Positions 1 through 4,288 of a stretch of 4,288 nt of DNA are shown here, in pieces. The stretch comes from a virus. Lineage: Duplodnaviria; Heunggongvirae; Uroviricota; Caudoviricetes. Position numbers and translations under genes: made by a program. Under the pieces are notes generated by a model that was not told the DNA's origin, searched no databases, and worked only from the letters and a program-made list of their open reading frames with translations. Position 1 is the stretch's first letter; the number at the start of each line of letters is the position of its first letter. The stretch lies in the IMG/VR virus record IMGVR_UViG_2531839200_000015. One strand, 5' to 3'.

Positions 1-370
1 TCATCGGGGTAAAACGGTTTATGACGTGGCTTCCGGCGACGCGTTATTTATTTCTGAACTCGGTCCGTTACCGGAAAATGTTACCTGGTTGTCGCCGGAT
101 GGAGAGTGTCAGAAGTGGAACGGCACATCCTGGGCGAAAGATGCAGAAGCAGAAAAACTGTTTCGGGTACGGGAGGCAGAAGAAACAAAAAACAGCCTGA
201 TGCAGGTAGCCAGTGAGCATATTGCGCCACTTCAGGATGCCGTAGATTTGGATATTGCGACGGAGGAAGAGGCATCGTTACTGGCTGCATGGAAGACATA
301 TCGGGTATTGTTGAATCGTGTTGATACAACAGTAGCAGCGGATGTTGAGTGGCCAGTCGCCCCACAATAA
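1..370 (+). CDS. Phage tail fiber assembly protein (Tfa/gpG family), C-terminal part; 5'-partial, gene begins upstream of the window
   Basis: The frame is open from base 2 ([29 protein letters not shown]...) to the TAA at 368-370. The GTG at 26 reported as start by the ORF track is internal. The C-terminal motif [27 protein letters not shown]....WP is the conserved tail-fiber-assembly chaperone domain found in lambdoid Tfa and P2 gpG proteins (recalled, not searched). GC is about 48%. Confidence 0.88.
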
Positions 371-376
371 AAAGAA

Positions 377-406
377 AAAGCCATCGACAGAAATATCGAT
401 GGCTTT
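377..406 (-). terminator. Rho-independent terminator hairpin between convergent genes, strongest for the minus-strand acetyltransferase
   Basis: Perfect 11-bp stem, AAAGCCATCGA (377-387) pairing with TCGATGGCTTT (396-406), around an 8-nt loop CAGAAATA. On the minus strand the hairpin is followed by UUCUUUUUAUU (complement of 366-376), a classic U-tract. On the plus strand it is followed by AUGUACUCUAUUU, a weaker tract. It sits between the tfa stop (368-370) and the acetyltransferase stop (414-416). Confidence 0.7.
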
Positions 407-413
407 ATGTACT

Positions 414-986
414 CTATTTATACAATACAACACCACTCTTTTTAGTTATATATGTGCAGTTTGATGGTATATCTTTATTTATAAAAGACATTGCACCTAT
501 TTTTACATTATCCCCAATTTTACGTGATAATCCAATGATGCAACAATTAGCTCCGATATCAACGTTACTACCAATTTTTACTCTTGAACTAGGCATATCA
601 CCATCTATCTGTCCAATGGTAGTATTCTGTCGTAATACCAGATTTTCACCCGCATCAACAGCAAAATGAACAACAATTCCAGCATGATGGGGAATTGTCA
701 ACCCTTTTCCAATATTTGCGCCCAATCCTATTTCACAACCAAACTTGTTAATTATTTTACTGTTTAACTTTTTGGCTGCTTTCTTATGTAATTTATTACC
801 ATTAATATACATTTCGTTAGCCAACCGCCACCAGAAAAGGAAATTCCGGTTACGCTGCTTTTTCTCTCTTAAAAGCCTCCAGATATCCATACGTTTCCGC
901 CGAATTACTTCATGTTTCCAGAAGTTTTTTAAATTAGTAGAGTTTCCAAATAAAACAAAGTGAATTGCCATTAAGTAAGATAGCAC
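414..986 (-). CDS. Hexapeptide-repeat (left-handed beta-helix) acetyltransferase, serine acetyltransferase CysE/WcaB-like; AT-rich cargo gene
   Basis: The ORF-track frame is 414..1019. The protein carries tandem hexapeptide repeats (GLGANIGKGLTIPHHAGIVV..., IGQIDGDMP, KIGSNVDIGANCCIIG, KIGDNVKIGAMSFI) preceded by a CysE-like helical region (FLFWWRLANEMY...KFGCEIG). I prefer the GTG at 986-984 as start because AAGGAG (998-993, minus sense) lies 6 nt upstream of it. The track start GTG at 1019 and the ATG at 971 have no Shine-Dalgarno and remain alternatives. GC is about 27-30%, far below the flanks. Confidence 0.82.
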   Translation of the reverse strand: MLSYLMAIHFVLFGNSTNLKNFWKHEVIRRKRMDIWRLLREKKQRNRNFLFWWRLANEMYINGNKLHKKAAKKLNSKIINKFGCEIGLGANIGKGLTIPHHAGIVVHFAVDAGENLVLRQNTTIGQIDGDMPSSRVKIGSNVDIGANCCIIGLSRKIGDNVKIGAMSFINKDIPSNCTYITKKSGVVLYK

Positions 987-1037
987 GATAATCTCCTTAA
1001 TTATTATTTCAGACCACACATGTTATAAGGTTAAGAG

Positions 1038-1066
1038 ATTATAAAATCCTGTTATTTGTTATTCAA
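1038..1066 (-). promoter_or_regulatory. Predicted sigma70 promoter for the acetyltransferase gene
   Basis: Minus-strand reading: TTGAAT (-35, complement of 1061-1066), a 17-nt spacer AACAAATAACAGGATTT, then TATAAT (-10, complement of 1038-1043, perfect consensus). An A/T-rich UP-like tract (AAAATTGTTTT) sits upstream. The predicted transcript start near 1031 leaves a leader of about 45 nt before the SD and GTG at 986. Confidence 0.55.
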
Positions 1067-1099
1067 AAACAATTTTCTGAGAAGGACATACAACAGCAA

Positions 1100-1132
1100 G
1101 TCGCCAGTCACCTTCATCAGGAAATTGGCGAC
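1100..1132 (-). other. Inverted repeat (7-bp stem, 19-nt loop) just downstream of the gpU stop; possible weak terminator or recombination scar
   Basis: GTCGCCA (1100-1106) pairs with TGGCGAC (1126-1132). It is flanked by direct copies of GACATAC (1085-1091 and 1130-1136). On the minus strand the stem is followed by the moderately U-rich CUUGCUGUUGUAUGU. Confidence 0.25.
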
Positions 1133-1142
1133 ATACGTTAAA

Positions 1143-1631
1143 TCAGAGCAGCCCCTTAACTGAGCTGGCCGCGCTATTAAGGGATGATGTCACCTTATCT
1201 TTGAAGCCGGACAGCATATCGCTGAACGATGAGGATTGCAGGCGCTCCCGCAAATCCTCATCACAGCGTTCAAGAGTCAGTGAAAATTCTATCTTTTTCG
1301 CCTTACCGTAGCGATCAAACTCGGAGCGGGTCGTATTCGTTCCGGTCAGGACATACATGCCGTAAATCTGCCCGACGCCATCAATCAAAGGCCAAGGACG
1401 TCCTGTATATGCCTGCGTGGTCAACAACGACAGCGACACTTCGCCACCAGTAATCTCAGGATAAAGAACACCAGAAAGAACGATGCGATCATCACCTGCA
1501 CCGATATACTGCCAGCTTGCTGAACGGTTAACGCGTTCATTTTTCACATGTCGCCAGCTTTTGTTTTGCTGTAACTGCTGATGCGGCAACGTGCGCAGCT
1601 CAAAAACAAACATGCCGTAGATCATCATCAT
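1143..1631 (-). CDS. Phage tail protein, P2 gpU family
   Basis: The ORF-track frame is 1143..1637 (MAMMMIYGMFVFELRTLPHQQLQ...WRH...NSRVNRSA..GAGDD...LSGVLYPEITGG...WPLIDG.G.IYGMYV). The N-terminal MMM-hydrophobic pattern and conserved blocks match P2 gpU as I recall it (MMMVLGLFVF...). It sits directly downstream of the tape measure gene, as in P2 T-U order. The start is probably the second ATG (1631-1629), since GAGGAG (1645-1640, overlapping the gpT stop) is 8 nt upstream of it and only 2 nt upstream of the first ATG at 1637. Confidence 0.8.
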   Translation of the reverse strand: MMMIYGMFVFELRTLPHQQLQQNKSWRHVKNERVNRSASWQYIGAGDDRIVLSGVLYPEITGGEVSLSLLTTQAYTGRPWPLIDGVGQIYGMYVLTGTNTTRSEFDRYGKAKKIEFSLTLERCDEDLRERLQSSSFSDMLSGFKDKVTSSLNSAASSVKGLL

Positions 1632-1643
1632 GGCCATGACTCC

Positions 1644-3954
1644 TCAATCTTTATCGTAAAAACTGCCACGCCTGGCACGGGCGCGCCGTTCCATTTCTGC
1701 CCTGACCATTTCGCCGACCAGTTTCGCCAGTTCGCGGGGATTCTGCGTAACAACGTTATGCAGATGAACATGAATTTCACCGCCAAATCCGGAGGCAACA
1801 GGCTCCCGGTTACGGGAAGTTGCAGGAACTGATGCCACTGGCGATCGTATGGCCTCCACCACCGGGCGGGAGCTGGCCGCAACAACAGGGACCAGCGCCG
1901 GAGGCAGCGGAGCCGGGACCACGGGTGTGATATTAATTGCGGGGGCAGGCTTACTGACCTGCGCAATCTTCCGCTCCTGCCACTCCCCACGAACAGCAAG
2001 TGCGCGGGGCAGGTTCTTAAAGACAATATCGCCGGGGCCAATGCGTTTTTTTGTCTCATCAACCAGCTTACCTGTGTTATCAGCAATTTTGCTGAGTCTG
2101 CGTAGCGTGCCGGTATTGCTGTCTGTGAGAGGTTTGTTGTCTTTGGGTTTATCATCTCCGGTGCCATTGCTATTTCCCGCAGACTTCGGCGGATTGATTT
2201 TCGCAATGTCTCCCTGAAACAGAGCAACCTTGTCCTGAAGAATGGCCGCACGTTGTGCGTCTTCGATTTTCTTGCGCGCCCTTTCCGCTTCATCCGGAAG
2301 CACACCGAGTTTTTCAAGTATCCACGCCAGCGTATCCAGCAACATTTTTGCAGGCGTCAGAACAAGCTGTAACGCACCACCAAGAACGTTACCGAATACC
2401 TCGCCAGCACTGGTACATTTATCCAGCGTTTCCTTGCTGGACTCCATCGGTGACAGCAGCGATTTAAACCAGTTAAACACCTGGCTGATCCCGCTTCCGA
2501 TTACGTCAAAAACAGGGCCAAACCGTTCAAAGGTGTCGCGCAACGGGGTCAGCCTTTCCATAATCCCGCTGAACACCCCGGCAAAGAAAGCCCTGATAGG
2601 ATCCCAGTATTTCCAGATAAGAACGGCAGCTCCGGCAAGCGCAGCCACGATAAGACCAACCGGACTGAACAACGCCCCGATAACGCCTCCCAGTAAAGAA
2701 ACGGAACCCGTCACCATTCCCCATAGCGCAGGTAACACCCTGACGACATTCATTGACCGGGTAAGAATGTCAAAACCAAGACGCAGGGTGGCCAGCTTCC
2801 CGTAAAGCACCCCAATAACCAGCGACAACGAGCCAATCGTTGCAGTCATTGCCAGCAACGCACCGCCTGCTATCAGTAGCTGGCGCGTCAGTACCGGATG
2901 GGCCTGCGCCAGCGAGGTGATTTTTTCAAGCACCCGCGTGAGCCACTGCGTGACAGAACGCAGCGGACCGTCAACCAGATCACTGATGCGAATACGAAGA
3001 CCTTCCCATGCGCTGTCGAGATTTTTCAGGTCCCCATCAAGATTATCAGCCATTACTTTTGCGACGCGATCGGCCTCTCCCCTTGCCCCCTGCAATTCTC
3101 TGGTCAGTTTTTGCAGCTCTCCTGAACCAGCCGCCGCAACAAGCGTCTGCAAACCAACGAACGCCTCTTCTCCGGCGATGTCCTTGAAGAAGGAGACCTG
3201 GTCCACCTGTCCGTATTTTTGTGTCGCCTTATAGAGATCAAGCAGCACATCCTCCATCGGGCGCATTTTGCCTCTGGCGTCAGCAACTGACACCCCCAGC
3301 TCTTTCAGTGCATCAGCCGCAGCTTTTGGCGGTGATGCAAGGCGGGACAGACTTGCGCGCATGGCCGTGCCAGCATCGCTTCCGCGAAGACCATTATTGG
3401 CAAGCATCCCGGCCATGGCCGCCGCTTCTTCAAGACTGATACCAAGTTTTGCGGCAACCGGACCGGTATACTTCATGGTTTCGCCCAGCGCGCGTAAATC
3501 AGTATTGGTCCGGGTAAATGCTGCTGTCAGCGTATCGCCCACCCGGTCCATTTGATCGGCTGTCAGGTTGAACTGTGTGAGGATATTGGAGCCTATATCA
3601 GCCGTCTCGCCGAGTTCGACGCCACCTGCCAGCGCCATATTAAGAACACCGGGCAATGCGGCCTGAATGGCCTGCGGAGTAAAACCAGCCATTGCCAGAA
3701 AGCTCTGCCCACTGGCGGCATCACTCGCAGTAAACTGTGTTTCAGCAAGTTTTAACGCCTGCTCACGCAGCGCCTTAAACTGCGGGCTGTTTTTGTCGAT
3801 TCGCGTCAGTGCCTGAACGCGGGACATCTCTTTGCCGAACCCGATCGCAGGCTGCAAAAAACGCCCGGCAGCATAGCCGCCCGCCGCTGCCGCACCAATT
3901 GCCAGCGCACCACCTGTTTTCAGTTTTCCCGCGGTTTCCTGCGCGTGCGAATAC
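1644..3954 (-). CDS. Phage tail tape measure protein (P2 gpT-like, TP901-type domain), 5' end interrupted by IS insertion; probably a pseudogene or gene fragment
   Basis: A 737-codon ORF (track 1644..3857, with TTG as first possible start) ends in TGA at 1646-1644. It has an N-proximal tape-measure domain (...LGISLEEAAAMAGMLANNGLRGSDAGTAMRASLSRL...), a long central hydrophobic Gly/Ala/Leu-rich segment and a Pro/Val/Ala-rich C-terminal region, all typical of myovirus tape measure proteins. My hand translation shows the frame stays open upstream of 3857, with no ATG/GTG/TTG, through the IS boundary at 3954/3955 and about 30 codons into the IS until a TGA at 4046-4044. So the native start is missing from this side of the IS. 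Confidence 0.88.
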
Positions 3955-4288
3955 TGAACCGCCCCGGAAATCCTGGAGACTAAACTCCCTGAGAAAGAGG
4001 TAAACAGGATGACTAAAAATACTCGTTTTTCCCCCGAGGTCCGTCAACGGGCAGTTCGTATGGTTCTGGAAAGTCAGGATGAATATGACTCACAGTGGGC
4101 GGCAATTTGTTCCATTGCCCCAAAGATTGGCTGTACGCCGGAGACTCTGCGTGTCTGGGTTCGCCAGCATGAGCGGGATACCGGGGGCGGTGATGGTGGG
4201 CTCACCAGCGCTGAACGTCAGCGTCTGAAAGAGCTGGAACGTGAAAATCGTGAACTGCGCCGCAGTAACGATATCCTTCGCCAGGCTT
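3955..4288 (+). mobile_element. IS3-family insertion sequence, left end (IS629/IS1203/IS3411-like); continues beyond the window
   Basis: The terminal sequence TGAACCGCCCCGGAAATCCTGGAGACTAAACTCCCTGAGAAAGAGGTAAACAGG starts at 3955 with the TG dinucleotide typical of IS3-family inverted repeats. It is followed by the OrfA ATG at 4008 with an AAGAGG Shine-Dalgarno (3995-4000). The left-end sequence matches IS629 as I recall it; this was not verified by search. Confidence 0.85.
4008..4288 (+). CDS. IS3-family transposase OrfA (helix-turn-helix and leucine-zipper N-terminal protein), 3'-partial
   Basis: The ATG at 4008 opens [93 protein letters not shown], which runs to the window edge without a stop. 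This is the characteristic IS3-family OrfA: an HTH region followed by a heptad Leu/Arg/Glu-rich zipper. It is absent from the ORF track because it is not closed within the window. Confidence 0.9.

Follow-up and report, generated by a model that had tools for sequence, protein, structure and literature searches.

The locus examined here raises the question of how an acetyltransferase gene lodged among the tail genes of a prophage is transcribed in the lysogen, that is, from a promoter of its own or together with the phage late genes. Over positions 1-3953, the stretch of DNA analysed (4,288 nt, hereafter the window) is identical to the sequence of a defective P2-like prophage that E. coli O157:H7 carries near leuZ-cysT-glyW, pgsA and uvrC and that is called Sp13 in strain Sakai and CP-933T in strain EDL933. 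The window opens with the 3′ part of the tail-fibre assembly gene tfa (26..370, plus strand; Pfam PF02413, E 5e-38), which is convergent with the acetyltransferase cargo gene (414..986, minus strand; ECs2638 in Sakai, EDL933_RS14210 in EDL933, protein WP_000954203.1). The latter starts at a GTG, has a GC content of 28-40% and encodes a hexapeptide-repeat protein of 190 aa. Behind it lie the gene for the tail protein gpU (1143..1637, minus strand; PF06995, E 1.5e-38), which is the last of a co-directional upstream tail operon, and the tape measure gene (1644 to about 3953, minus strand; PF10145), which is cut by the left end of an IS1203/IS629 element of the IS3 family (3954-4288, with orfA from 4009 on the plus strand). 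Strains differ in the DNA upstream of the cargo gene. In the arrangement of the window, as in strain PV15-279, IS1203 has replaced part of the upstream tail operon and the sheath genes, tube genes and late promoter are gone, while Sakai, which does not differ from the window over 371-1142, retains sheath and tube genes upstream. Because the upstream late promoter was deleted by IS1203 in the window arrangement, a local promoter is there the only evident source of transcription for the cargo gene.

We propose that the minus-strand motif TTGAAT-17-TATAAT is the sigma-70 promoter of a self-contained phage moron, composed of promoter, ribosome binding site, acetyltransferase gene and terminator, and we put the probability of this reading at roughly 70%. 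The -35 hexamer TTGAAT (1066-1061) agrees with TTGACA at 4/6 positions and keeps the TTG, its two mismatches falling at the two least conserved and least informative positions. The spacer of 17 nt (1060-1044) lies within 17 ± 1 nt and contains segregating sites at 1058 and 1054, and the -10 hexamer TATAAT (1043-1038) is a 6/6 match, including the A at position 2 and the T at position 6. Upstream of the -35, an A/T-rich tract, TTCTCAGAAAATTGTTT (1083-1067, minus strand), partially matches the proximal subsite of an UP element and is conserved in a P2-like relative, L094. Hexamers, spacer and upstream tract are thus all read on the minus strand as the sequence-only reading had described them. 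Assuming the usual -10 to +1 spacing, transcription would initiate at A1031 or A1032 (minus strand), 6-7 nt past the -10, a predicted start that maps to ~2,700,324 (-) in EDL933 NZ_CP008957 and to ~2,605,999 (-) in Sakai NC_002695.2. The distance of about 45 nt to the best-supported start codon given by the same reading is correct when taken from this transcription start (45-46 nt to GTG 986). Host RNA polymerase carrying sigma-70 would recognise such a site without a phage activator, which would make transcription of the gene in the lysogen independent of the Ogr-dependent late operons. A P2-type late promoter dependent on Ogr/Delta was ruled out, since the dyad TGT-N12-ACA does not occur anywhere in the window. 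We also observed a C-to-T variant at 1022, present in the commonest haplotype (L056 and 12 other loci), by which TATAAC becomes another perfect TATAAT, located 16 nt downstream of the first and associated with a poor -35 (AGGATT).

The predicted leader (987..1030, minus strand; 45-46 nt) carries the Shine-Dalgarno sequence AAGGAG at 998-993, 6 nt ahead of GTG 986. No significant secondary structure was predicted in this 5′-UTR (fold z-score -0.43), and a comparison of the 5′-UTR and intergenic region with Rfam returned no known RNA element. The only Rfam matches in the window were RF02111 'IS009' inside tfa and a sub-threshold Qrr match over the cassette terminator. The IS009 match (191 bits, cut-off 117) covers 135-333 on the plus strand, wholly within the tfa coding sequence, so that this Rfam 'sRNA' family coincides here with a conserved segment of a prophage tfa gene. 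PGAP assigns GTG 986 as the start. This agrees exactly with the first position of all ten homologues compared, the most distant of which (Orbaceae, Frischella and Citrobacter) are 39-47% identical. The alternative starts GTG 1019, ATG 971 and ATG 891 were rejected, every homologue starting at the position of GTG 986, and it follows that the older annotation from ATG 891, used originally for both Sakai and JL22, is too short.

The boundaries of the cassette are marked by composition and by structured RNA. GC content is 28-40% over positions ~400-1100, with 28-33% around the promoter, compared to 48-58% in the flanks. At the distal end, an intrinsic terminator on the minus strand (367..406) consists of a 13-bp stem (406-377) followed by UUCUUUUUAU. 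It folds with -21.3 kcal/mol (z -6.8), and also folds on the plus strand (z -6.3), behind the convergent tfa gene. At the proximal end, directly past the gpU stop codon, a hairpin on the minus strand (1100..1132, GUCGCCA...UGGCGAC, then UUGCUGUU; -21.3 kcal/mol, z -3.9) separates the promoter from gpU. It lacks a clean U-run and is probably a moderate terminator or insulator that ends the tail operon. The terminator scan missed this hairpin owing to its large interrupted loop, and the segment is lineage-specific, its place being taken in L094 by another, GC-rich hairpin. Promoter, ribosome binding site, gene and terminator together make up a classical moron layout, from which a monocistronic mRNA of ~660 nt would be expected, with its 5′ end near 1031 and its 3′ end near 370 (minus strand). 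The position of the cassette had been described as being inside a tail gene cluster. The tail context is right; more precisely, the cassette occupies the junction of two convergent tail operons, between the end of gpU and the tail-fibre/tfa operon, which is a known variable slot for morons or invertases that contains a DNA invertase in related phages and neaT in strain CFT073.

The same slot was followed through related phages. In Gemsvirus, Xuanwuvirus and P88-like phages, homology to the window extends through the tape measure gene and gpU as far as 1137, past which these phages have a DNA invertase, together with an invertible tail-fibre segment, in place of the cargo. Presence or absence of the cassette therefore differs between otherwise homologous phages at a junction of conserved genes, as expected for a moron. 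The acetyltransferase gene is always accompanied by tfa and tail-fibre genes, in P2-like, P1-like and other phages, and it is the upstream side that varies. P1-like phage-plasmids (JL22, Ro157c2YLVW and several IMG/VR contigs) share window positions 2-985 and break exactly at the start codon, having upstream an unrelated sequence with its own TTGACA-18-TAAAAT. The upstream neighbours in one of these contigs (L077) are divergent lysis genes, and in JL22 and Ro157c2YLVW the upstream element is a co-directional tail-fibre assembly gene or its remnant (U, U′) at a distance of ~500-600 nt. In three further loci (L084, L092 and L093) the shared sequence ends at 1068-1070, at the edge of the -35, and the upstream neighbours, a phosphatase gene and umuD, are again divergent. 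Where the upstream neighbour is divergent, co-transcription is impossible and the gene must have its own promoter. As separate observations on gene order, the tfa and acetyltransferase genes of JL22 (L002, 2121-7584) lie within a segment between 602-nt inverted repeats beside cin, that is, an invertible tail-fibre segment, in which inversion would not alter the orientation of the acetyltransferase gene relative to tfa, and in Ro157c2YLVW (L157) the same pair adjoins the U′ remnant.

Conservation of the promoter itself was analysed in a sample of 42 IMG/VR contigs representing 24 haplotypes; a pattern search that left both hexamers unconstrained yielded only the same 42 contigs. All 12 hexamer positions are invariant in these close relatives, while 13 other upstream positions vary, a result that is not significant in this underpowered sample (P = 0.31, with 75 variable sites in 772 nt). 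L094, which is P2-like and has a diverged gpU and the different hairpin mentioned above, keeps the entire TTGAAT-17-TATAAT. In L084, L092 and L093 the -35 reads TTAAAT and the -10 reads TACGAC (L093) or TACACT (L084 and L092), and this degradation of the hexamers points to turnover, with no deep purifying selection on the promoter element. A 26-nt block around the Shine-Dalgarno sequence is 100% conserved in all loci that share the upstream type, including these three. In all three loci the best local candidate is displaced by ~22 nt in the downstream direction; in L084 (1514-1690) and L092 (469-645) it reads TTTACA-18-TAATAT, with its -35 at the place of the window's -10, and this shift may represent promoter turnover. 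The promoter segment 987-1100 is present at at least 95% identity in 495 of the 5,426 complete E. coli genomes (~9%, roughly one in eleven), and the serotypes that carry it include O157, O26, O111, O104:H4 and O22:H8.

AT-rich foreign DNA readily yields promoter-like sites, and the motif could be a chance match in acquired DNA of this kind, in which case the cargo gene would depend for its transcription mainly on another start or, in intact phages, on read-through of the tail operon. A promoter scan of the window gave five promoter-like sites against 4.3 expected, and the sites with at least 10/12 matches number three, all of them within the AT-rich island. The other two (502-531 and 965-992, each with 10/12 matches) lie on the plus strand, inside and antisense to the acetyltransferase gene, and the one at 965-992 would fire back through the cargo promoter, antisense into gpU. 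By match count, a 156-nt stretch with the composition of the island has a probability of 0.07 of containing one or more such sites on the right strand, and this falls to 0.02 when a perfect TATAAT is required. The loss of the hexamers in L084, L092 and L093 fits a chance origin as well, and the absence of a clean U-run after the gpU hairpin would allow read-through. On the other hand, a weighted model that combines position weights with a spacer preference, the weights being approximations of published compilations and the results indicative only, ranks the site as the best of the window on either strand, with 15.3 bits compared to 11.1 for the next best, a margin of ~4 bits, and 0.6% of random island-like 156-mers reach this score (P ~0.006). 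Strand, distance and geometry relative to the ribosome binding site all fit as well. The weighted scan found no other good candidate between gpU and the cargo gene and none better within 300 nt upstream. Read-through is difficult to reconcile with the deletion of the upstream late promoter by IS1203 in the window arrangement, with the divergent neighbours that the gene has in other contexts, and with the separate regulation of ECs2638 and ECs2644 in the Sakai data described below. We thus consider a chance match unlikely.

Another explanation starts from the A/T-rich palindrome TTCTCAGAAAATTGTTTTTGAATAA (1083-1059, minus strand), which overlaps the -35 and might be the relic of a Hin/Gin/Cin crossover site that stayed behind on replacement of the invertase module found in related phages, the resemblance to a promoter being incidental. 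Related Gemsvirus phages indeed have a DNA invertase directly beside gpU, the tfa-acetyltransferase pair of JL22 lies inside an invertible segment, and the homology of L084, L092 and L093 breaks at 1068-1070, within TTCTCAGAAAATTGTTTTTGAATAA. Nevertheless, a recombination site of this type, with two 12-bp half-sites around a core, was rejected since the AAACC-NN-GGTTT core is missing, no match within 2 mismatches being found near 1059-1083, in contrast to L003, which has 1-mismatch sites at the borders of its segment. The resemblance requires indels in both half-sites, and a relic of this kind would not account for the perfect -10 hexamer located 17 nt away, all of which makes this explanation highly improbable.

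Regarding expression in the lysogen, papers mentioning CP-933T contained nothing on the cargo gene, and the sole mention of ECs2638 found in literature text was a gene-loss table. Expression values for Sp13 genes are nevertheless given in the accessible part of Supplementary Table 1 of a Sakai microarray study (Crozier et al. 2016, PMC4940412). There, comparison of 1 h at 18 °C with 37 °C gives a change of -9.99-fold for ECs2638 mRNA, while the temperature columns of the tail tube gene ECs2644 and of ECs2646 are blank (non-significant); these values are relative mRNA signals and not initiation sites, and the rows compared are those of ECs2644 and ECs2646, with ECs2639, ECs2640, ECs2643 and ECs2645 left out. 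Since ECs2638 changes with temperature and ECs2644 and ECs2646 do not, the table rows indicate that its mRNA level is controlled apart from that of the co-directional tail genes. The data thereby support the view that ECs2638 is a separate transcription unit in the lysogen whose mRNA is present at 37 °C. Other Sp13 genes listed in that portion of the table are also lower at 18 °C, namely the integrase gene ECs2617 (-9.6-fold), ECs2619 (-6.3-fold) and the early genes (cox, Z2971-4; -46 to -276-fold relative to 37 °C). The much lower levels of the integrase and early genes at 18 °C show that part of the defective prophage is transcriptionally active at 37 °C. These figures do not support the suggestion that the cargo gene is expressed 'constitutively', and they contradict strictly constitutive expression, given that Sakai contains about 10-fold less of its mRNA at 18 °C than at 37 °C.

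How this temperature response arises bears on whether the promoter, even if functional in vitro, is silenced in the lysogen by H-NS/Hha and expressed only conditionally, at 37 °C, upon host cues or through anti-silencing. The DNA around the promoter, with its 28-33% GC, would be a suitable target. The accessible rows of the table (PMC4940412) list espF, ehxA, espP and stx2B around ECs2638, and LEE, ehx and espP genes share the direction and size of its change, so that the 10-fold drop at 18 °C parallels that of H-NS-silenced LEE, ehx and espP genes. The temperature pattern would thus be compatible with H-NS silencing of AT-rich DNA, and H-NS may act at the cargo promoter. However, a temperature effect has many possible causes, and the integrase and early genes of Sp13 also fall in the rows available. 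Moreover, the mRNA is measurable at 37 °C in minimal medium according to the same source, so silencing can be at most partial. We regard conditional silencing as a serious possibility, somewhat short of an even chance. In terms of mechanism, expression from the proposed moron promoter would be modulated, higher at 37 °C than at 18 °C, plausibly via H-NS-type silencing of AT-rich DNA.

Taken together, the claim of the sequence-only reading that the promoter is dedicated to the cargo gene and lies outside late control is supported, and that reading as a whole is upheld in part. The motif is the only good candidate after gpU, a hairpin stands between the two, the Ogr dyad is absent, the upstream neighbours are divergent in three other phage contexts, and ECs2638 behaves differently from ECs2644 in the available Sakai rows. 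From these lines we infer promoter activity, and we consider it likely that the gene has a dedicated promoter that works independently of late transcription.

As to what such a promoter would express, the cargo protein matches phrog_2154 (E 3e-87), a family whose annotation gives no function. Its fold class is that of left-handed beta-helix acetyltransferases, most like EpsC, CysE and WcaB, and matches in the PDB are confined to the hexapeptide domain. The name given by PGAP, CysE serine O-acetyltransferase, is not established, because the score is far under the equivalog cut-off (TIGR01172, 62.4 bits against 210.65); the EpsC and WcaB models likewise gave 76 against a cut-off of 150 and 54-56 against 195, respectively. 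The only paper that discusses the protein, that on JL22, calls its role unknown. Variable sites in the gene fall mostly at the third codon position (36/53), which indicates purifying selection on the cargo gene, and the substrate is probably a surface polysaccharide or its precursor. An Orbaceae chromosome (L005, 2501-3881) carries two tandem paralogues outside any obvious phage tail context; thus, the acetyltransferase family is not restricted to prophages. Macro domains bind ADP-ribose or deacetylate O-acetyl-ADP-ribose, and a gene for a macro-domain protein separates the tail-fibre gene from tfa in the O157 prophage (L001, 10511-11413) and in L093 (3708-4517); no such gene was found at that place in L084 and L077. 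This protein, two genes from the acetyltransferase, may or may not be functionally paired with it.

If the promoter is active, the acetyltransferase would be a lysogen-expressed conversion gene in about one of every eleven complete E. coli genomes, including major Shiga-toxin-producing serotypes, and would offer a handle on the target of the enzyme, on phage susceptibility and on surface antigens. As gene regulation, this would be a textbook moron promoter that changes no concept; a modest added interest comes from the association of the acetyltransferase gene with tail fibre and tfa and from the exchange of promoter modules between phage types. A more speculative view is that the tail-fibre/tfa genes and the convergent acetyltransferase gene form a portable unit for receptor recognition and masking, switched on at mammalian body temperature, in which the enzyme would acetylate the surface polysaccharide that the linked fibre recognises, a proposal that we hold to be doubtful. 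Equally doubtful is that this unit hops among P2-like, P1-like and other temperate phages, acquiring a new promoter module each time. If true, superinfection exclusion and altered antigenicity would be among the consequences.

The phrog_2154 hexapeptide acetyltransferase cassette and its promoter have not been described previously, and several known systems resemble them in part. The lambda bor and lom genes and the morons of HK97 and HK022 (Hendrix/Juhala) are likewise extra AT-rich genes between conserved structural genes, with their own sigma-70-type promoter and intrinsic terminator; they are likewise present or absent among related phages and are expressed from the prophage. Unlike in these morons, the upstream promoter region is here itself modular and differs between phage types. 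The late promoters of P2 (PP, PO, PV and PF) also lie in a P2-type morphogenetic region, but in them a TGT-N12-ACA dyad near -55 accompanies a poor -35, whereas the cargo site has no dyad and a good -35 and -10, which places it in an activator-independent class. Sf6 Oac and the SfIV/SfII-type modules are likewise prophage-borne, AT-rich acetyltransferase genes with autonomous expression in the lysogen and linkage to receptor-recognition genes, and for them, as for the present cassette, the presumed role is to alter surface polysaccharide. Those enzymes belong to the AT3 family and are encoded beside int/att, in contrast to the cargo enzyme, which is from another family. The closest system is neaT of E. 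coli CFT073, which occupies 'moron position 2' in the P2-like prophage phi-b0847 (PMC3573123). It is A+T-rich, adjoins tfa in an orientation opposite to the tail-fibre operon, and is expressed in the lysogen from a native upstream region of 211 bp (PMC3573123). It therefore shares with the present cassette the slot, an A+T-rich acyl/acetyltransferase gene and the opposition to the tail-fibre operon. The two proteins are not homologous, NeaT being a membrane AT3 acyltransferase (PF01757) and the cargo protein a soluble-type left-handed beta-helix; neaT is rare, compared to the ~9% of complete E. coli genomes that carry the present cassette; and, in contrast to the neaT prophage, the cassette described here is set in the inverted FI-U operon arrangement of the P88/Gemsvirus type.
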